This document shows positions 53,427 through 64,000 of a stretch of DNA of 64,000 bases, one piece after another; positions within the stretch are counted from its first letter, which is position 1, and every line of letters begins with the position of its first letter. Where the stretch lies: positions 1-64,000 of the IMG/VR virus record IMGVR_UViG_3300020391_000005; one strand, given 5' to 3'. A model generated the notes under the pieces. That model was not told the DNA's origin, did no database searches, and saw only the letters and a program-made list of their open reading frames with translations. This DNA is from a virus. The translations under genes and the position numbers were made by a program.

Positions 53427-53663
53427 ATGAGTAGAGGTAAACCATGTCACGTTGAAATAGTGATACATGATCAGAATCAAGTAGAGAGGATGATCAAAAA
53501 ATTTACAAGAAAATGTAAAAAGCAAGGTCTTTTTGATGAATTAAAAAACAGGAGATATTTTAAAAAGAAATCTCTTAAAATGAAAGAAAAAAGGGAAAAT
53601 AAAAAGAGGTTGTCCCAAAAATCAACCCAAAAATATAAAGATAAGTTTAATAAATTAGATTAG
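53427..53663 (+). CDS. rpsU: Phage-encoded ribosomal protein bS21
   Basis: VERMIKKFTRKCKKQGLFDELKNRRYFKKKS fits the bS21 pattern (ExALRRFKRxxxKxGxLxExRxRxxYxKPS); AAGGAG RBS. Confidence 0.82.
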   Translation: MSRGKPCHVEIVIHDQNQVERMIKKFTRKCKKQGLFDELKNRRYFKKKSLKMKEKRENKKRLSQKSTQKYKDKFNKLD

Positions 53664-54219: not shown

Positions 54220-55410
54220 ATGTCAGATTTACTCGAAAAAGCCATTATTGATGCAAAGGCTTTGAAAGAAGCAGCACTCAAAAATGCAGAGCAGCTTGTT
54301 ATCGAAAAGTATTCTCAAGAAATAAAACAAGCTATGACTAGAATCCTCGAAGAAGAAGATGAAAATTTAACAGAAGCCCCAGAAGATGACCCAATGGCTG
54401 ACCTGTTTGGTGATGATGCACAAACACCGACACCAGGCCCCGAAGATCCAAACGCAGAAAATCCAGCTACAGACAATAAAATAGATTCCGAAGATATAAG
54501 AGCAGAAATTCCAGACTCATTCAGAACAGATGAAGAAGAACTTATAAGTATACAACTTGATTCTTTAGAAGATGATTTTGATTTTGATGACACCGGCGCT
54601 TTCGCAAGCGGAGATGAACTAGGCGATGACGATATTGGAATAGATTTAACTGATGATGAAGTAAGTTCAGATGTAGAAGCAACGCCAGACATAGATACAA
54701 CCCCAGACACTGAAGCAGGTTTAGGAATAGACGTTGCAGGAATTGAGCCAGCAGCTTTGGAAGAAATGATAAAAGATGCAATTGAGGGTGCTATTGGAGA
54801 ACAATTAGAACAAGAAGAAATAGAATCAGACGAACTTGCTGAAAGAGTTAGAGTAGAAGGCATGCCACAAAAATCCGGCTGGGCTGGTACTCCAGAATCT
54901 ATTATGCAAGAATATGAAGCGTTACTATTAGCCACAGAGCAGGACACCGAAGTTAAGGAACAGAATGCCGAACTTCGAAAAATAGTATCAAATTTACAAA
55001 AAGAAAATAAAAAGTTAACATCCGCTGCTAGAAAATTAGTAGAACGGAACAAGAAATATGAATCAGCATTTGATACTTTGCAAGAAAAGTTAGAAACCAT
55101 GAATGTTTCCAACGCAAAGTTGCTGTACATAAACCAGGCTCTAGAAAATGCCTCCTTGAATGAGCGACAAAAGAGAAAAATTGTCGAAGCCATTTCAAAA
55201 GCCGAAACTGTACAAGAAGCAAAGATAGTTTTTAATACGATTACTGAAACTGTCTCCACTACTTTGGACGCAAAGAAGGAGATGACGTTAAATGAAATGG
55301 TATCTAGAAAATCTTCACTACTTGTCGCGGCTCGTAAAGAGCAACCCACAAAGGATGCCAATCCTATGTATACAAGATTACAGAAATTGGCAGGAATAAA
55401 GACAACATAA
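54220..55410 (+). CDS. Prohead core scaffolding protein (gp22-like)
   Basis: Very acidic centre, C-terminal coiled coil and terminal RLQKLAGI; immediately before the capsid gene. Confidence 0.8.
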   Translation: MSDLLEKAIIDAKALKEAALKNAEQLVIEKYSQEIKQAMTRILEEEDENLTEAPEDDPMADLFGDDAQTPTPGPEDPNAENPATDNKIDSEDIRAEIPDSFRTDEEELISIQLDSLEDDFDFDDTGAFASGDELGDDDIGIDLTDDEVSSDVEATPDIDTTPDTEAGLGIDVAGIEPAALEEMIKDAIEGAIGEQLEQEEIESDELAERVRVEGMPQKSGWAGTPESIMQEYEALLLATEQDTEVKEQNAELRKIVSNLQKENKKLTSAARKLVERNKKYESAFDTLQEKLETMNVSNAKLLYINQALENASLNERQKRKIVEAISKAETVQEAKIVFNTITETVSTTLDAKKEMTLNEMVSRKSSLLVAARKEQPTKDANPMYTRLQKLAGIKTT

Positions 55411-55444: not shown

Positions 55445-57253
55445 ATGTCTATTTTACAAAAATTAACAGAAGGCGTTCAGAACCGTAATATGGAAGCTGA
55501 AGGAAACGCTCTTCTTCAAAAGTGGGAAGCAACTGGATTGCTTGAAGGTCTTAATGAAGGCCACAACAAGCAGGGAATGGCAGTTCTTCTCGAAAACCAG
55601 GCAAAAGAACTTCTTCGCGAAGCATCCGCAATGGGTAGCGGCGATGTTGAAGGTTTTGCGTCTGTAGCATTCCCAATCGTTCGCCGTGTTTTCGGCGGCT
55701 TGATTGCAAATGATCTTGTATCGGTACAGCCAATGAGCTTACCATCAGGACTTATTTTCTTTCTTGACTTTCTTAAGAGCCCAGACGTCCGTCCTAACCA
55801 GCCTGGTTCCGACCAGTCTGTATATGGCGGAAACGTCATCGGTAGCCAAATAACCGGTGGTGTCGATCTCGGTAGCGAGACAAAAGTTGAACCAGGTCAG
55901 TTCTATGATCTTGATACTGGCTTTTCTCACGCCACAGGTTCAGCTGTTGCTGCAAAAGACGCCAACAGCTACTCTGGAGGTCTTCAAGTAGATACAGTTC
56001 AAGTACAAAACAAGCTTGTTTCTGAACTTACAGAAGCAGAAAAGAAGCTAATTCGTTTTGATGCGGACTTGCTTGAAAACAATTCTGCAGATAAGATTGT
56101 AATCCTTGACTGTGATATTACAAAGCTTGATAACTTTAACAGAGATGCCGCAACTGCAGTTCATGCAGGTTCTGGTACGTCTATTAAGTTTGTTGATGAC
56201 TCGGTTGGCGATAACGTTATCACCGACGCCGGCGCAAATGTACGTCAAGTTCGAAGGCTTACTCAAGTTGTTGATAATGCAACGTTACGTATTGTACTCG
56301 TTGATCTCAGCGGTGCAGACATTGGACCAAGCGCCGGACAAACATGGGCCGCAGACGATGCCGTTGGTATCTTGGCATATCCATTTACCGATGATCGTGA
56401 AGCTGTAACGAACGGTCTTGGTGCAATCAACCTTGATACTACCGCAACAGGCTTTGGCATACCGCTTGAAAAGGCGCAAGACATGGCTGAAATCGATATT
56501 AAGGTCGATTCAATCGCCGTGACCGCACAGACCAAGAAGTTGAAGGCTAAGTGGACTCCTGAGTTGGGACAAGACCTTAATGCTTATCACAATTTGGATG
56601 CTGAGGTTGAGCTTACAGGTATTCTTTCAGAGCAAATCGCTCTAGAAATTGATCGTGAGCTTCTTGGTGATCTTGTTCAGGGTGCAAAGGCTGGTACACG
56701 TTACTGGAGCCGCGCCCCGGGTCTTTTCGTTGACTCACAAGGTAGAGAACTTGGTGCTTCTTCGGCAGCTCCTGACTTCACCGGTACAGTTAGCGAGTGG
56801 TATGAGACTCTCATTGAAACAATCAATGACGTAAGCGCTCAGATCCACAGAAAGACACTTCGTGGCGGTGCAAACTTTGTTGTTTGCTCTCCAGAGATTG
56901 CTAACATCCTTGAGTTCACAAGTGGTTTCCGCGCAAGCGTTACTGCTGATCAGGACCGAGGCACCATCGGCGCTATCCGCGCTGGTAGCTTGAGTAAGAA
57001 GTTTGACGTTTACGTTGATCCTTACTTCTTGCGTAACGTTATCCTCGTAGGTCGTAAGGGTAGCTCGTTCCTTGAGAGCGGCTTTGTATATGCTCCTTAT
57101 GTACCATTGCAGGTAACACCTACCATTTTCGGTACGGAAGACTTCGTACCACGTAAGGGCGTTATGACCCGTTACGCTAAGAAGATGGTACGACCTGATA
57201 TGTACGGTCTTGTTATTTGTCGTGGTCTCCTCGGTGAGGAAGGCTCTAAGTAA
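55445..57253 (+). CDS. Major capsid protein (T4 gp23-like)
   Basis: AVLLENQ; FPIVRRVF..LIANDLVSVQPMSLPSGLIFFL; VTAQTKKLKAKWTPELGQDL.AYH.LDAE.EL; YAPYVPL; KGVMTRYA; AGGAGGT RBS. Confidence 0.97.
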   Translation: MSILQKLTEGVQNRNMEAEGNALLQKWEATGLLEGLNEGHNKQGMAVLLENQAKELLREASAMGSGDVEGFASVAFPIVRRVFGGLIANDLVSVQPMSLPSGLIFFLDFLKSPDVRPNQPGSDQSVYGGNVIGSQITGGVDLGSETKVEPGQFYDLDTGFSHATGSAVAAKDANSYSGGLQVDTVQVQNKLVSELTEAEKKLIRFDADLLENNSADKIVILDCDITKLDNFNRDAATAVHAGSGTSIKFVDDSVGDNVITDAGANVRQVRRLTQVVDNATLRIVLVDLSGADIGPSAGQTWAADDAVGILAYPFTDDREAVTNGLGAINLDTTATGFGIPLEKAQDMAEIDIKVDSIAVTAQTKKLKAKWTPELGQDLNAYHNLDAEVELTGILSEQIALEIDRELLGDLVQGAKAGTRYWSRAPGLFVDSQGRELGASSAAPDFTGTVSEWYETLIETINDVSAQIHRKTLRGGANFVVCSPEIANILEFTSGFRASVTADQDRGTIGAIRAGSLSKKFDVYVDPYFLRNVILVGRKGSSFLESGFVYAPYVPLQVTPTIFGTEDFVPRKGVMTRYAKKMVRPDMYGLVICRGLLGEEGSK

Positions 57254-57279
57254 TAAAACTTAGCAACAGCCAAAAGATT

Positions 57280-57316
57280 AAGCCTCATCATTAATTTGGT
57301 GGGGCTTTTCTTTTTT
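57280..57316 (+). terminator. Rho-independent terminator after the capsid gene
   Basis: AAGCCTCATCA-ttaatt-TGGTGGGGCTT stem (two G.U pairs) followed by TTCTTTTTT. Confidence 0.85.
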
Positions 57317-57323
57317 CTGAAAG

Positions 57324-57333
57324 CTATTTATTA
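57324..57333 (+). promoter_or_regulatory. Putative late promoter motif (CTATTTATTA)
   Basis: Directly after the terminator and about 10 nt before the structured RNA. Confidence 0.6.
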
Positions 57334-57343
57334 TAACTTGGAA

Positions 57344-57435
57344 TAACCTCCTGGGTCGTAAAGCCACTGGCCCTTGAAGAGATACAACAGAGGTGGCTGG
57401 TTGTGTTTCGTGGAAGTTCGAGGTTAACGTTAACC
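57344..57435 (+). ncRNA. Candidate structured RNA (three-way junction with kissing loops), family unrecognised
   Basis: P1 57344-50/57420-26; P2 57353-57/57369-73; P3 57379-88/57400-09; loop-loop pairing AGCCAC(57362-67)/GTGGCT(57393-98); GC-richer than the flanks. Confidence 0.65.
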
Positions 57436-57458
57436 ACATAATAAGGAGGAAATAAATT

Positions 57459-58043
57459 ATGGGTAGTAGAAGATTAGGTAGAAGGAGATTATTCTCTTTA
57501 GATAAAGCAGGTCAGGAAGTAGACCTCGGTGCCGGAGAAGGAATTAAAGACGCTATTGTGTCAACAACACAAAAAAGAGAAGGTCATCAAATAATCACAG
57601 AAATTGCATTAGACCTTGGTACGTCGAAGGCTGAAATAAAAACCTCAGGTACCGGAGGCAACGGCGCGAGGAAGCCTTTCGGTGTTGCTGACAAGGAGGC
57701 TAGTATAGGACAGTTAACAGTAGCAAAGGTTGGGGTAGTCAATGAAGTGAGAGTTCAGGTCTTAGAAGCCATAGTCGGTGGTACCACCACATTTGATCTT
57801 GAGAGCGCCAACGATGGAGTTGGTAAATCAGGCGCTGTCGGGGCCCTAGGTACGGGCAACACTGCTCAACTCGACGCTATAACAAACACTGTCGGTGTAG
57901 ACATATCAAAATTGTTTGACGCTAACGAGCTAGCAGATAAATTTCTTTATGTTTGCCAGGGTGAAGACGACAACGCTGCAGCACTCACAGCTGGAAAGCT
58001 TCTTATTACGATCTATGGGGCTGCGGTCCCAGCGGATCTGTAA
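57459..58043 (+). CDS. Hypothetical protein (possible head decoration) with Arg-rich N-terminus
   Basis: AAGGAGG RBS; MGSRRLGRRRL followed by a Gly/Ala/Thr-rich beta domain. Confidence 0.8.
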   Translation: MGSRRLGRRRLFSLDKAGQEVDLGAGEGIKDAIVSTTQKREGHQIITEIALDLGTSKAEIKTSGTGGNGARKPFGVADKEASIGQLTVAKVGVVNEVRVQVLEAIVGGTTTFDLESANDGVGKSGAVGALGTGNTAQLDAITNTVGVDISKLFDANELADKFLYVCQGEDDNAAALTAGKLLITIYGAAVPADL

Positions 58044-58056
58044 GGAGGAGTGAATC

Positions 58057-58167
58057 ATGTCTAGAGCAAGAAGAGCGAAAGCGAGAAAATCTACCTCTAA
58101 AAAGGCACCACCAAAAAAGGTGAAGAAGGCCGAAAAGCCAAAGGCTGAAGAGGTCAAAGAAGAGTAA
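58057..58167 (+). CDS. 36-aa basic Lys/Ala/Pro-rich peptide (not in ORF track)
   Basis: AAGGAGG RBS; MSRARRAKARKSTSKKAPPKKVKKAEKPKAEEVKEE. Confidence 0.75.
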   Translation: MSRARRAKARKSTSKKAPPKKVKKAEKPKAEEVKEE

Positions 58168-62227: not shown

Positions 62228-62367
62228 TTTTATATTCTATTTAAAGAAGACAGTTTTTTTCTTTTATTAAAATCCCCTATTTTATAATATTACATTACCT
62301 TTATTCCATTCAAATTTGTTTATTAATATAATATTGAATATTGAACATATTTAGGAGGTAATAAAAT

Positions 62368-64000
62368 ATGGCTAATTCAAAACTAAGAAATTTTCAGCTC
62401 GAAAAGTTGACCGATTTTAACAAAGTTGATTCAGCAGCTGTCAACTTGACGGGCTCTTCTGCACACAGTTCTGCAATCGCTGACGAAGATGTGTTACTAA
62501 TCCAAGCAAACGCCGGTGGCGGTGCAAAAAAAGTAACGGCAGCGATACTTCAGAATTATTTTTCAAAAGTAGATATCTCTGAAAGTCAAGACGACGCAGA
62601 TCAGAGAATCATTTTCGCAAACGCAGGATCAGGAGATTTAAACTCTGATGCTTCTGCAGGTTCTGTCCTTGAGTTCGCTCATGGTGATGAACCATTTACC
62701 TTTAACGCGTCTTCGGGCTTGTTGAAGGTACCAGCTCTTCAAAATAGAAGTGGCTCTTTTACAGTTTCTTCAGCAGGTGCTCTAGTTGCATCAACAGCAA
62801 GAGTTTCTGACCTTTCAAGCGGCCGCGTTGTACTCGCTGGCAGCTCCGGTGAAATTGAAGATAGTGCAAATCTTTTGTTCGATGGGACAGTGTTAACACT
62901 TTCGGCATCATCTGGAACAGTCCTACGAAATAACGGATCTGAGTTTACTGTAACGGCTGCCGGTGCACTCGTAGCTGCAACCGCAAAAATTTCAGATCTT
63001 ACTTCTGGTCGCGTAACATTTGCTGGTACTAGTGGTGAACTTGAAGATAGTTCTAATCTTACATTTGATGGTACAGATTTGACAGTAGCTAGTGCTAAGG
63101 TATCTGATTTAACGTCTGGTAGAATCGTACTAGCAGGCACATCTGGTGCTCTTGAAGATAGTAACAAACTAACATTTGATGGTTCAACATTAGTAGTGAC
63201 TGGCGCTGTGGCAAACAGTGGAGGAACATTTTCAGTTACATCTGGCGGCGCTCTTGTAGCTGCTAGTGCCAAAGTATCTGATCTATCATCTGGCAGGGTT
63301 GTTCTTGCTGGTGGCTCTGGTGAGCTTGAGGATAGCAGTAACTTAACCTTTAATGGTTCGCAGTTAGCAGTAACTGGTATCATTTCGGGCTCTAGTCATC
63401 TTCACATCAATGGCGCAGCTGTGATTGCATCTTCTGCATCCGTTGGAGAAACATTAGGTGTCACTGGTATTGCTACCTTTAGTTCTGCTATAGATGCTAA
63501 TAGCACTGCAGACATTGCTGACACCCTTACATTAAGCAAGGGTTCCGGAACAGCATTGAGCGTAAGCTCCGGCGGCGGTGCAGTATTTTTAGGCACTGTC
63601 TCTGGCTCTAGCACACTACAAATTGGTGGCCAGGGTACTTTTGGAGATGTACTTACAGCTAATGGCGCAGGTAACGGTCTTGTTGTGGCTAACAATGCGG
63701 ACATTAACGGCGATCTTGATGCTGCCGGTACAGTACAACTTGGTACAAGCGGTGGTTCCGCCGACACAACTGTACGTGGTGATCTTGCAGTTGGTGAAAA
63801 TCTTACTGTAACTGGTAATTTTACCGTTAATGGTACAAGCACTGTTGTTGATAGTACAATCACAACGTTGAAAGACCCATTGATTGTTTTAGGTTCTGGC
63901 AACACAAGCAATATAAGAGACTTAGGTCTTATTCTTGAGCAGTCTGGATCAAGCACAAATCTAGGTTTCTTCTATGATAGAGATCAGTCAGAGTTTGCAG
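62368..64000 (+). CDS. Tail fibre-like protein, 5' part (runs off the window; not in ORF track)
   Basis: AGGAGG RBS; open frame MANSKLRNFQLEKL... to the window end; S/G/A/T-rich repeats; GNFTVNGTSTVVDSTITTLKDPLIVLG fibre-type motif. Confidence 0.85.
   Translation, partial: MANSKLRNFQLEKLTDFNKVDSAAVNLTGSSAHSSAIADEDVLLIQANAGGGAKKVTAAILQNYFSKVDISESQDDADQRIIFANAGSGDLNSDASAGSVLEFAHGDEPFTFNASSGLLKVPALQNRSGSFTVSSAGALVASTARVSDLSSGRVVLAGSSGEIEDSANLLFDGTVLTLSASSGTVLRNNGSEFTVTAAGALVAATAKISDLTSGRVTFAGTSGELEDSSNLTFDGTDLTVASAKVSDLTSGRIVLAGTSGALEDSNKLTFDGSTLVVTGAVANSGGTFSVTSGGALVAASAKVSDLSSGRVVLAGGSGELEDSSNLTFNGSQLAVTGIISGSSHLHINGAAVIASSASVGETLGVTGIATFSSAIDANSTADIADTLTLSKGSGTALSVSSGGGAVFLGTVSGSSTLQIGGQGTFGDVLTANGAGNGLVVANNADINGDLDAAGTVQLGTSGGSADTTVRGDLAVGENLTVTGNFTVNGTSTVVDSTITTLKDPLIVLGSGNTSNIRDLGLILEQSGSSTNLGFFYDRDQSEFA
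62797..63357 (+). repeat. Four about 30-aa coding repeats A(K/R)(V/I)SDL(S/T)SGR(V/I)xxAGxSGxxEDSxxLxF(D/N)G
   Basis: Copies start at 62797, 62983, 63094 and 63268. Confidence 0.9.

Follow-up and report, generated by a model that had tools for sequence, protein, structure and literature searches.

What is the RNA encoded between the major head gene of this phage and the gene that follows it, and what does it do? The window (the whole stretch of 64,000 nucleotides analyzed here, to which all coordinates refer) carries the stop codon of the capsid gene at 57253, and the next ORF begins about 200 nucleotides further on. We favor, with moderate confidence, the answer that the intervening stretch is the 5′ leader of the mRNA that follows the major head gene, that it acts in cis as a translational switch and that it represents a new RNA family. 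Its features are as follows.

57281–57316 (approximate), + strand: intrinsic terminator (hairpin and U-run) of the major head gene, read directly; weak Rfam matches align there
57324–57331, + strand: CTATTTAT box, a promoter-like motif and putative late promoter
57334–57344, + strand: P1 5′ strand of the family type, UAACUU (P1a), G, GAAU (P1b)
57344–57350, + strand: TAACCTC, P1 5′ strand of the initial annotation, with partner GAGGTTA at 57420–57426; an alternative of one subgroup only
57347–57352, + strand: anti-SD CCUCCU in junction strand J1/2, partner of the SD in the minimum free-energy (MFE) fold
57353–57373, + strand: P2 hairpin, GGGUC (57353–57357) with GGCCC (57369–57373), one U.G pair
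57358–57368, + strand: L2, GTAAAGCCACT, 11 nt, with kiss bases GCCAC at 57363–57367
57374–57378, + strand: J2/3, UUGAA
57379–57409, + strand: P3 hairpin, GAGATACAAC (57379–57388) with GTTGTGTTTC (57400–57409), 10 bp, two G.U pairs
57389–57399, + strand: L3, AGAGGTGGCTG, with kiss bases GUGGC at 57393–57397
57363–57367 with 57393–57397, + strand: L2–L3 kiss (pseudoknot)
57410–57415, + strand: J3/1, GUGGAA, of which GUG is conserved
57416–57426, + strand: P1 3′ strand, GUUC, G, AGGUUA, overlapping GAGGTTA and the 5′ half of P4
57422–57435, + strand: P4, palindromic hairpin GGUUAACGUUAACC (palindrome GGTTAACGTTAACC), exclusive with P1a
57443–57449, + strand: Shine–Dalgarno sequence (SD) AAGGAGG, 7 bases beyond the palindrome, partner of the anti-SD in the MFE fold
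57459–58043, + strand: ORF under presumed control, ATG at 57459, 194 aa, N-terminus MGSRRLGRRRL

Direct reading finds every helix, loop, palindrome and SD of the initial annotation where it had placed them, and the two loops are complementary as letters (AGCCAC, 57362–57367, with GTGGCT, 57393–57398). A hairpin with a U-run lies 3′ of the capsid gene in relatives too. In the CTATTTAT box, C1, T2 and A3 never vary among 52 leaders and T5, T6 and A7 hardly do; the window holds 15 copies against 6.9 expected, several of them 18–50 nt upstream of the SD-ATG of structural genes. Another long leader, which follows a box at 62237, is without structure (z = −0.05). The window also contains a scaffold-like ORF at 54220–55410, which is very acidic.

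Every complete leader found sits between a CTAnTTA box and an SD-ATGGG start, and 84.8 kb of the record (∼47% of the genome) hold a single copy. Among 80 capsid-linked loci, 12 carry the leader, always just 3′ of the capsid gene and on the coding strand. The element leads the gene that follows in a phage of the gp23 type, distantly T4-like, for whose capsid the annotated phage collection holds only distant relatives (Mel-JY01, 35.5%; RM378, 32.9%; Flavobacterium phage immuto, 45.9% over 66% of the query). A DNA search of 56800–58100 against the annotated phage collection gave no match, and the exact pattern, a scope that leaves diverged copies aside, occurs in none of 185,579 species genomes, giving no host or prophage clue. 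Metatranscriptome contigs, from which neither 5′ end nor strand nor level can be read, cover the leader in parts, which is weak evidence of expression since DNA carry-over is possible, and gaps in the cover carry no information.

Covariation in P2, P3 and the kissing loops

Taken by itself, the window sequence has a fold not beyond chance (MFE −38.1 kcal/mol, z = −1.61; 16 of 200 shuffles fold equally well), and comparison is decisive. This MFE fold pairs CCUCC with the SD and does not use the P1 of the initial annotation. Contigs of marine viruses and metagenomes supplied 59 homologous leaders that are complete and distinct from one another. A pattern with TTGAAG, TTTCGTG, GCCNC and GNGGCT fixed found 52 leaders, so that the invariance of these letters within the 52-leader set is by construction. 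Two alignments carry the analysis: a MAFFT alignment of the 52 leaders (A2), made independently of structure, and a model-fitted alignment of 61 matches in 51 distinct rows. Short exact-pattern scans (37 stretches; more than 119) gave mostly chance matches, and only those confirmed by blastn were used. L299 (G+C-rich, without box or ATG) and L312 (5′ end cut) were omitted from A2 and A3, with L312 kept in A4; L290, whose locus start is too near the leader, was omitted from the counts of anti-SD:SD duplexes, P4 and variable pairs; L035 (E = 0.18, minus strand) was counted as a chance match.

P2, P3 and the kiss, all proposed from the single sequence, rise above chance by covariation in these relatives. 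In the model-fitted alignment, 94.2% of their cells are paired, with 15 double-changed pairs; slid controls are paired in only 29–50%, and none of 500 shuffles reaches any of five measures. The MAFFT alignment gives 95.2% paired cells and 11 double-changed pairs, with 0/500 shuffles as high on four measures and 6/500 on the fifth. Taking the elements separately in the model-fitted alignment, P2 is paired in 95.7% of cells with four of five pairs double-changed, P3 is paired in 90.8% with nine of 11 pairs double-changed, and the kiss is paired in 100% of cells over the 51 distinct rows. The kiss nevertheless varies: column 23–59 is AU in 41 rows, GC in eight and CG in two, and column 22–60 is CG in 49 and GC in two. 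Four fully complementary versions occur (GCCAC/GUGGC, GCCGC/GCGGC, GCGGC/GCCGC and GCCCC/GGGGC), two of them from members found by a model without kiss information. Regarding the strand, G.U pairs are frequent in the relatives (at one P3 pair, for example, 18 rows have GU and 15 have AU) and would be C.A on the other strand, so the RNA is the + strand. Judged by this comparison, the element is a conserved, structured + strand RNA with a three-way junction, and its loop–loop kiss is proven by covariation.

The two arms are of different length, P2 having 5 bp and a loop of 9–11 nt and P3 having 10–11 bp and a loop of 9–11 nt, which makes an intramolecular kiss geometrically demanding; covariation gives the same signal for an intramolecular and an intermolecular kiss. 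In the junction, UUGAA of J2/3 and TTTCGTG at J3/1 are invariant in the 52 pattern-found leaders, where the pattern requires them. In eight divergent members J2/3 is UAGAAA-like in five, absent in two and retained in L030, and J3/1 reads CAUUGA in five divergent members. These differences of J2/3 and J3/1 in the eight most divergent members are unlike a strict small-molecule pocket. J2/3 UUGAAG(A) is similar to the hammerhead core.

The closing helix and the helices around the SD

The P1 that the initial annotation proposed as closing helix is limited to the subgroup of the window: all seven pairs are standard in only 3 of 52 leaders, six of seven in 11, and five or fewer in 38. The family-wide closing helix is a different, two-part P1 (P1a and P1b) that starts from the presumed 5′ end of the RNA. 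In the window this duplex (57334–57344 with 57416–57426) has an energy of −9.9 kcal/mol (z = −4.08; 0/300 shuffles equal it), its 5′ strand is homologous to P1a/P1b of other subgroups, and it also appears in the constrained SD-free fold, giving a P1-closed junction. The P1 duplex is better than shuffles (p ≤ 0.05) in 36 of 46 distinct strand pairs, and in a 36-row subgroup alignment it is 92.8% paired versus 16–45% when slid. Compensatory changes in that alignment comprise three pairs and six cells, numbers that 47 and 9 of 500 shuffles, respectively, also reach, and the covariation score is not above that of shuffles; the best compensations sit in rows misaligned by MAFFT and were read by eye. 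Also by eye, P1b occurs as AAUUA/UGAUU, GCGCG/CGCGC (L058), UUCUGG/CCAGAA (L020), UCAA/UUGA (L288) and, in the window, GAAU/GUUC. Subgroup B (L085, L087, L278, L262 and L283) shows no convincing P1 (p 0.22–0.79 versus shuffles), and its P4 does not overlap any P1 strand. Swapping cognate for foreign P1 strands changes the mean energy from −9.2 to −8.1 kcal/mol with widely spread ranks, a test that is uninformative because most members share P1a and the 5′ piece included promoter letters. A transcription start downstream of the presumed one would leave the RNA without part of P1a.

Mutually exclusive helices beside the SD had already been recognized, and they stand, but the earlier model left out a conserved pairing of the SD itself. 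The anti-SD YC(U/G)CC is conserved in 59 of 59 leaders. Its first position against the base after GGAG is U-A in 26, C-G in 24, U.G in eight and C.A in one (standard in 58/59), a covariation whose basis may be as little as one ancestral subgroup split and which involves an SD already constrained by the ribosome. The duplex has −10.8 kcal/mol in the window and ranges from −3.9 to −13.4 kcal/mol across the 59 leaders, the two weakest (L264 and L007) being broken by a G mismatch. In 50 of 52 leaders the SD-free fold is less stable than the unconstrained MFE, the mean difference being 4.4 kcal/mol; anti-SD:SD pairing dominates the predicted ground state.

The palindrome noticed at the outset is real as a conserved hairpin, P4, which overlaps the P1 3′ strand and lies 7 nt before the SD. 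Of the 59 leaders, 57 have a palindrome of at least 12 nt, which comes in four sequence versions, and the departures from it, of five kinds, are all G.U on the + strand and never A.C. On A2, P4 is paired in 96.2% of cells, with two double-changed pairs, and its shared outer GUUA/UAAC halves are spaced by 2, 4 or 6 nt. Except in subgroup B, P4 shares 3–7 nt with the P1a 3′ strand, and in L285 it covers the entire strand. In L282, L284 and L292, an A-to-G change in the shared strand is pairable in both P1 and P4.

A proposed switch and its alternatives

In the switch that we favor, the three-way junction, with its two-part P1, short G+C-rich P2 and long, freely covarying P3, would be a sensor-like domain in which five Watson–Crick pairs lock the P2 and P3 loops together. 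The YCUCCU anti-SD, complementary to the SD, would be held in the strand between P1 and P2, and the platform would consist of P4, whose 5′ half is the P1 3′ strand, followed by the SD and the AUG. What we observe across the family is the set of helices, the kiss, the complementarity between anti-SD and SD, and the overlaps among the helices; the alternation of states, the assignment of the 'on' state and the trigger are what we infer. In the closed state, which is the predicted ground state, P4 would be formed, P1 open and the anti-SD paired with the SD, blocking initiation. In the open state, P1 would close the junction, capture the 5′ half of P4 and keep the anti-SD within the junction, leaving the SD free. 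Translation would then be turned on by whatever stabilizes the kissing three-way junction, and candidate stabilizers are co-transcriptional folding alone, a protein or a small ligand. The leader probably controls how much of the next protein gets made. P1 and anti-SD:SD could, on the other hand, coexist as a pseudoknot, and then there would be no switch. A more specific proposal, which we offer tentatively and do not expect to hold in full, is a new ligand-sensing leader class, confined to marine T4-type phages, in which a head-assembly signal gates translation of a hypervariable capsid-associated protein. As such a signal, the free Arg-rich N-terminal arm of the encoded protein would be the most attractive candidate. 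In this proposal the self-complementary hairpin might also allow two leaders to pair.

In every case the gene downstream of the leader is hypervariable but keeps an Arg-rich N-terminus: MG-x-R-(R/L/I/V) opens all 60 of the leader-linked ORFs that were examined, whose bodies are of at least five unrelated types (149–302 aa). For the 194-aa product, no Pfam, PHROG or PDB relative was found at threshold, tblastn against the annotated phage collection gave no match, and the Atlas search with the protein returned viral hypothetical clusters only, plus a weak cement-protein lead at 0.77. All 12 model-positive loci among the 80 capsid-linked loci start with MG-x-R-(R/L) (11 with MG-x-R-R, and L014 with MGKRL). 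A further 24 of the 80 pass the looser test MG-x-[RK]-[RIVL] without a model match; these are mostly MG[TS]KR and have another leader, which differs even where the protein body is homologous (L024 versus L022). Since synonymous sites vary in the arm codons (by eye), the peptide is the conserved thing.

One sub-case of the switch names its trigger: the leader would be an autoregulatory operator whose junction is bound by the Arg-rich arm (MG-x-RR-x-G-x-[RK]-R), so that protein outside capsids feeds back on translation. The constancy of the arm in 60 of 60 ORFs despite at least five unrelated bodies, its presence in 12 of 12 model-positive loci with another leader in the 24 others, and its conservation as peptide all speak for this sub-case. 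It also has precedents, as Arg-rich peptides of lambda N, P22 N and HIV Rev bind RNA hairpins and the P22 scaffolding protein autoregulates post-transcriptionally; T4 gp32 binds a pseudoknot in its own leader (PMC3014915). However, the arm codons lie 10–40 nt from the leader, so near that linkage in a recombining cassette alone explains the association. Among divergent members, moreover, no peptide change tracks an RNA change, and the arm equally could be a capsid or scaffold anchor, given the very acidic scaffold-like ORF. We regard the operator as possible, though doubtful.

A fixed structure might also suffice, protecting the 5′ end from RNases and keeping translation low and constant relative to the capsid protein, with no switching. 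A 5′-terminal helix is a known stabilizer, in relatives that lack the motif, too, a hairpin immediately downstream of the box opens the homologous mRNA, and for 50 of 52 leaders the SD-closed state is predicted to be the most stable. Such a static leader is nevertheless rather unlikely: P1, P4 and anti-SD:SD mutually overlap yet are all conserved, which would be costly if only one fold were ever used, and the A-to-G change in the shared strand of L282, L284 and L292 keeps both P1 and P4 pairing.

Another sub-case of the switch is a small-molecule riboswitch, in which the junction would bind a metabolite or ion and turn on translation as in the adenine (add) riboswitch. The outline architecture is alike (a junction, an L2–L3 kiss and a P1 3′ strand with an alternative partner near the SD), and conservation is much higher in the unpaired letters of junction and loops than in the stems. 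This sub-case is unlikely, as there is no Rfam match even at E ≤ 10, the junction strands vary by subfamily (UUGAAG/CGUG versus UAGAAAG/CAUUG, with neither in L020 and L058), a single type of gene is controlled, namely a hypervariable virion-region gene without metabolic link, and the exact pattern is absent from the 185,579 species genomes.

The initial annotation had proposed a riboswitch-like leader or an oligomerizing RNA. The leader part stands, in that the element leads the next gene; oligomerization is required by nothing, the element occurring once in the 84.8 kb and abutting the SD. As an oligomerizing or trans-acting RNA, it would form dimers or rings with a structural or packaging role, through an intermolecular kiss as in phi29 pRNA and through the palindrome joining RNAs. 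The covariation fits intra- and intermolecular kisses alike, P2 and P3 are of unequal length, and P4 is self-complementary through its center in 57 of 59 leaders and in four versions, which a plain hairpin does not need. We consider this role very unlikely, because the element always adjoins an SD and start codon with no terminator between, occurs once in the 84.8 kb, has no match to the pRNA family in Rfam and belongs to a phage with a gp23-type head module. Phages of this type are not known to need a packaging RNA. Lastly, a DNA-level element, with the palindrome as the site of a dimeric protein or of recombination at the border of a hypervariable cassette, would suit palindromes perfect through the center and a downstream gene exchanged among at least five unrelated bodies, but it is highly improbable, as the half-site spacing is variable (2, 4 or 6 nt), five of five kinds of palindrome departure are G.U on the + strand and none A.C, and P2, P3 and the kiss are left unexplained.

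Few structured cis-regulatory RNAs are known for late structural genes of DNA phages, and the structured leaders of T4 are small hairpins or one pseudoknot. At ∼110 nt, the leader described here has all the parts of a switch: its junction is accompanied by a kiss of five pairs, in four covarying versions, by an anti-SD and by a hairpin that competes. Many uncultured marine phages conserve it, and it has no matching family in Rfam. For structural studies it is compact and well defined, and it lends itself to tests of translational control at the capsid locus. In these genomes the element is a marker of a cassette border as well, since the gene under its control has a fixed Arg-rich arm and is hypervariable beyond it. 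If the trigger is a ligand or the protein's own arm, this would be a new sensor class, and arm sensing in particular would mean that an RNA device links virion assembly with translation. Otherwise it is still a new, strongly supported RNA family fit for Rfam.

Comparison with known RNA systems

The novelty claimed for the element was checked with Infernal: cmscan of 56800–58000 against Rfam at E ≤ 10 gives 14 matches, none at the gathering score, and those weak matches span 57211–57322, all on the terminator hairpin and U-run. No described family thus matches the leader, and none of the matches is a purine family, in keeping with the doubt about a purine aptamer voiced earlier. The full-text literature search found no description of this element. 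Intergenic mining of IMG/VR 3.0 for covarying structures has given 8,495 new candidates, of which 879 lie no more than 25 bp in front of a gene (PMC10690425); the main text, as far as available, describes nothing like the leader, and the 8,495 candidates may include the motif.

In outline the leader resembles the purine riboswitch (RF00167, especially the translational adenine add riboswitch). Both have a P1–P2–P3 three-way junction with interacting P2 and P3 loops, although in the leader P1 has weaker support than P2, P3 and the kiss, and in both the P1 3′ strand has an alternative partner in the platform governing SD access. The details differ. In the purine riboswitch P2 and P3 are equal, with 7 bp each and 7-nt loops, whereas the arms of the leader are unequal (5 bp versus 10–11 bp). 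The purine riboswitch kiss consists of two G-C pairs within base quadruples, and that of the leader of five contiguous Watson–Crick pairs. The junction letters of the leader are other and vary between subfamilies, and the anti-SD lies inside the junction. With unequal arms and no RF00167 match, identity with the purine riboswitch is rejected.

The hammerhead ribozyme has CUGANGA between stems I and II, GAA after stem II and the single H17 between stems III and I. The leader has CGUG(G/A) rather than GAA after P3, 6–7 nt between P1 and P2 and no Rfam match, and a hammerhead is rejected as well. The phi29 pRNA (RF00044) is likewise a phage RNA with complementary loops able to kiss; pRNA, however, is an abundant RNA of its own and assembles into rings on the portal, whereas the leader is part of an mRNA. 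The leader runs into an SD and ORF without a terminator and has no RF00044 match, so identity with pRNA is rejected.

The remaining comparisons are with T4 itself. The gene 32 leader is an autogenous translational operator, formed by a small H-type pseudoknot and an unstructured A+U-rich tract to which gp32 binds cooperatively; the leader here is a kissing three-way junction with direct pairing to the SD, and binding of its product is a hypothesis only. The leaders of T4 e, soc, 49 and I-TevI provide a likeness in a T4-type phage, as their SD is hidden, in long transcripts, in an intramolecular helix, and soc encodes a capsid decoration protein (PMC3014915). In these T4 leaders the late promoter lies inside the 5′ arm of that helix, so late transcripts lack the inhibitory strand. 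The box at 57324–57331, in contrast, is not inside the 5′ arm of the SD-hiding helix but 16 nt upstream of the anti-SD (57347–57352) and upstream of both SD-hiding strands, so the e/soc mechanism is rejected, and relief of the SD must come from refolding. As in SD-sequestering leaders, a conserved anti-SD is complementary to the SD of the next gene. P1, which is not clear in subgroup B and could coexist with this pairing in a pseudoknot, is a candidate for an alternative helix that would exclude the closed state; it shares 3–7 nt with P4 in most subgroups and closes the junction in the SD-free fold.

The leader and its surroundings

The leader is the RNA stretch between a gp23-type capsid gene and an ORF of 194 aa, and direct reading of the sequence confirmed every element listed in the initial annotation. 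A terminator is followed by a CTATTTAT box; the strand pairs TAACCTC/GAGGTTA, GGGTC/GGCCC and GAGATACAAC/GTTGTGTTTC are present, together with two 11-nt loops carrying AGCCAC/GTGGCT. The features of the locus are as follows.

36482, 41235, 46468, 54157, 57324, 61527 and others, + strand: copies of the CTAnTTA box
53427-53663, + strand: ORF of 78 aa inside the head-gene module, matching bS21 of the ribosome (37.8 bits against a cut-off of 27; Pfam PF01165)
54220-55410, + strand: ORF of 396 aa upstream of the capsid gene, first half extremely acidic, second half coiled-coil-like
55445-57253: major head gene, matching phrog_138 (E = 9e-70)
57324-57461, + strand: leader region, between the major head gene and the 194-aa ORF
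57334-57344 with 57416-57426: helix P1, UAACUU-G-GAAU with GUUC-G-AGGUUA (-9.9 kcal/mol, z = -4.1)
57422-57435: 14-nt palindrome (P4), with the AAGGAGG SD seven bases further on
57459-58043: ORF of 194 aa downstream of the leader

The source IMG/VR record comprises 84,832 bases, with an estimated completeness of 47%. Its description as 'T4-like' holds in the broad sense only, because the capsid protein, although gp23-like, is remote from those of cultured phages (35.5% to Microcystis phage Mel-JY01, 32.9% to Rhodothermus phage RM378 and 45.9%, over two thirds of the query, to Flavobacterium phage immuto). The 396-aa ORF is without a family match; judged by where it lies and by its composition, it may encode a scaffolding protein. 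The CTAnTTA box recurs 18-50 nt upstream of the SD-ATG of several structural genes on the + strand, and CTATTTAT has 15 copies in the window against 6.9 expected. This box is probably a late-promoter-like motif of the phage, and it differs from the T4 late-promoter motif, TATAAATA. The late genes carry strong SD sites, alongside the phage-encoded match to bS21, a protein that adjoins the 16S anti-SD. A second box with a long A+U-rich leader (116 nt) lies at 62237-62385 (+), ahead of an ORF at 62368; this leader is predicted to fold no more stably than its shuffles do (z = -0.05).

Comparative support for the helices

The window's sequence by itself proves nothing on structure: 57324-57470 folds with an MFE of -38.1 kcal/mol (z = -1.61), a stability also reached by 16 of 200 shuffles. 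In this fold the P1 of the initial annotation (TAACCTC/GAGGTTA) is unused, and CCUCC is paired with the SD.

Relatives were collected from several sources. The annotated phage collection held nothing similar to the leader DNA or to the 194-aa ORF. IMG/VR gave 597 capsid relatives, the best 80 of which (identity 55-69%) were retained, and at most of these 80 loci the leader is short, of another kind, and carries one small hairpin. The leader of the window was recovered, with P3 altered by compensatory changes, from two relatives of the ORF and from three exact hits to a leader stretch. A structured degenerate pattern, leaving free the central base of each strand of the loop-loop kiss and four of the five positions of the P2 3' strand, matched 32 stretches in viral contigs, 58 in metagenome contigs and none in 185,579 species genomes. 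Merging identical sequences left 54; L299 (a chance match) and L312 (5'-truncated) were omitted, and 52 leaders were aligned. A covariance model of the core found eight further divergent members, missed by the pattern, among the 80 capsid loci, and one copy in the window's own record. Every model-found member directly follows the capsid gene, on its coding strand, and the source names of the collected sequences all indicate marine samples.

Covariation in these relatives bears out P2, P3 and the kiss. The MAFFT alignment of the 52 leaders, which involves no fitting to any structure, has standard pairs in 95.2% of 1,411 cells, with 11 pairs changed on both sides; none of 500 shuffles matches it in four of five measures, and 6 of 500 match the count of further pair types. 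When the partners are slid by 1-3 columns, pairing drops to 27-50%. The model-fitted alignment of 61 matches (51 distinct rows) is biased towards P2 and P3, and kiss information is absent from the model. Here 94.2% of cells are paired, 15 of 21 pairs are changed on both sides and 116 both-side-changed cells are counted against 25 expected, with none of 500 shuffles as high in any of the five measures. The kiss is paired in all 51 distinct rows; one of its pairs is A-U in 41 rows, G-C in 8 and C-G in 2, and a second is C-G in 49 and G-C in 2. Four versions occur (GCCAC/GUGGC, GCCGC/GCGGC, GCGGC/GCCGC and GCCCC/GGGGC), the last two confined to model-found members, and GCCGC/GCGGC appears by eye in at least two unrelated backgrounds (L117/L293/L265 versus L055/L271/L288/L312). 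Conservation is absent from the sixth kiss pair proposed initially (A57362 with U57398). The frequency of G.U pairs establishes the + strand as the functional one.

The closing helix is not the one first proposed, which is complete in three of the 52 leaders (the window, L086 and L084), has six of its seven pairs in 11 and at most five in 38. The family-wide P1 has two parts: in P1a the bases that open the RNA just after the box are the partner of the strand directly upstream of the palindrome, typically as AACUUGA/UCAAGUU, and P1b is a second short helix adjoining the junction. The P1 duplex is better than 95% of shuffles in 36 of 46 distinct strand pairs. For the subgroups other than the window's, a 36-row alignment has 92.8% of its cells paired versus 16-45% when slid. 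The variation is mostly one-sided (G.U), and changes on both sides affect three pairs and six cells (matched by 47 and 9 of 500 shuffles, respectively). The clearest compensations, read by eye from rows misaligned by MAFFT, are GCGCG/CGCGC (L058), UUCUGG/CCAGAA (L020) and UCAA/UUGA (L288) in P1b, and UUAAGAU/AUCUUGG (L263) in P1a. No convincing P1 is seen in subgroup B (L085, L087, L278, L262, L283). P1 thus has support, though weaker than that for P2, P3 and the kiss.

Competing helices and a putative switch

The strand between P1 and P2 (CCUCCU, 57347-57352), absent from the initial annotation, reads YC(U/G)CCU in 59 of 59 leaders and forms with the SD region a duplex of 5-9 bp (-3.9 to -13.4 kcal/mol). 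Among the rows listed, this anti-SD strand is the partner of GGAG in every leader fold. Between the first base of the anti-SD and the base following GGAG, the combination is U-A in 26 leaders, C-G in 24, U.G in 8 and C.A in 1; few events may underlie this covariation, because it mostly follows the division into subgroups. The unconstrained MFE lies below the best SD-free fold in 50 of 52 leaders (mean gap 4.4 kcal/mol, maximum 13.2), and in the two exceptions, L007 and L264, the anti-SD contains a G and the predicted fold is P1-closed.

Of 59 leaders, 57 retain the palindrome, self-complementary over 12-22 nt. Its main versions number four, with centres AACGUU, UACGUA, AUCGAU and UUGCAA, and it departs from perfect pairing only through G.U on the + strand (nine sequences of five kinds), which speaks for pairing at the RNA level. 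The 5' half of P4 has 3-7 nt in common with the P1a 3' strand, which is wholly covered in L285, and an A-to-G change in the shared strand of L282, L284 and L292 can still pair in both P1 and P4. The self-complementary centre of all four versions, at 57422-57435 and in its homologues, is beyond what a plain hairpin needs.

P1, P4 and anti-SD:SD are three conserved helices competing for common strands. When the SD is kept unpaired, folding predicts the three-way junction closed by P1; the alternative has P4 and anti-SD:SD around the same P2-P3-kiss module. In the simplest reading the leader is probably a translational switch, in which a stabilised kissing junction would hold P1 and the anti-SD, freeing the SD. 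Alternatively, P1 and anti-SD:SD may stand together in one pseudoknot. The helices and their overlaps are observed; for the switch we infer the alternation of states, its direction and its trigger. Parts of the leader are covered without mismatch by metatranscriptome contigs (X1, at 57221-57371 and at 57427-57577), and relatives' versions of the leader are also seen (X3, X5); such cover means presence in RNA libraries only.

The downstream gene, possible triggers and known systems

The 194-aa ORF has no relative in Pfam, PHROG or PDB, and the Atlas gives viral hypothetical clusters only, plus a weak phage cement-protein lead (0.77). The gene behind the leader is hypervariable. The 60 leader-linked ORFs examined all start MG-x-R-(R/L/I/V), typically MG(N/S)RR(L/I/M)G-x-(R/K)R, and by eye at least five unrelated bodies stand behind this arm (149-302 aa). 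No family reaches threshold for representatives of the other bodies; one body type (L029) has a sub-threshold ConA-like lectin match (22.4 bits versus a cut-off of 27.6). An autoregulatory protein-RNA pair, in which the arm-bearing protein would act on its own leader, fits the Arg-rich arm being present in all 12 model-positive capsid loci of the 80 (11 with MG-x-R-R, and L014 with MGKRL); however, close linkage accounts for the association equally well. The 24 model-negative capsid loci that pass a looser MG-x-[RK]-[RIVL] test, mostly MG[TS]KR, have another leader. This different, shorter leader of the MG[TS]KR relatives (L004, L009, L010, L017, L022, L041, L054, L057, L076) has a hairpin at its presumed 5' end in most of those folded, followed in L004, L017, L022, L041 and L076 by CCC, a second hairpin and a GGAGGG SD, and may represent a further design for pairing the SD. 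A small-molecule trigger is less appealing, because the junction strands differ among divergent members and a single gene type is controlled.

The Rfam comparison proposed initially matched no described family: a search of 56800-58000 at E <= 10 gave 14 weak matches, none at the gathering score, and those close to the leader either align with the capsid terminator or are noise (for example a fungal snoRNA, 15.5 bits versus a cut-off of 40). Full-text literature searches gave no description of the leader; a 2023 catalogue from IMG/VR lists 8,495 unnamed candidates (PMC10690425). On strong comparative support the leader appears to be a new RNA family, although that catalogue may already include the motif.

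Among known systems, the translational adenine riboswitch is the one whose outline the leader's mode of action would follow, but neither the model nor the dimensions of that family fit it. A pseudoknotted leader is shared with the T4 gene 32 operator, and a hidden SD with T4 e and soc. In these two genes the late promoter lies inside the inhibitory arm (PMC3014915), unlike in the leader described here.
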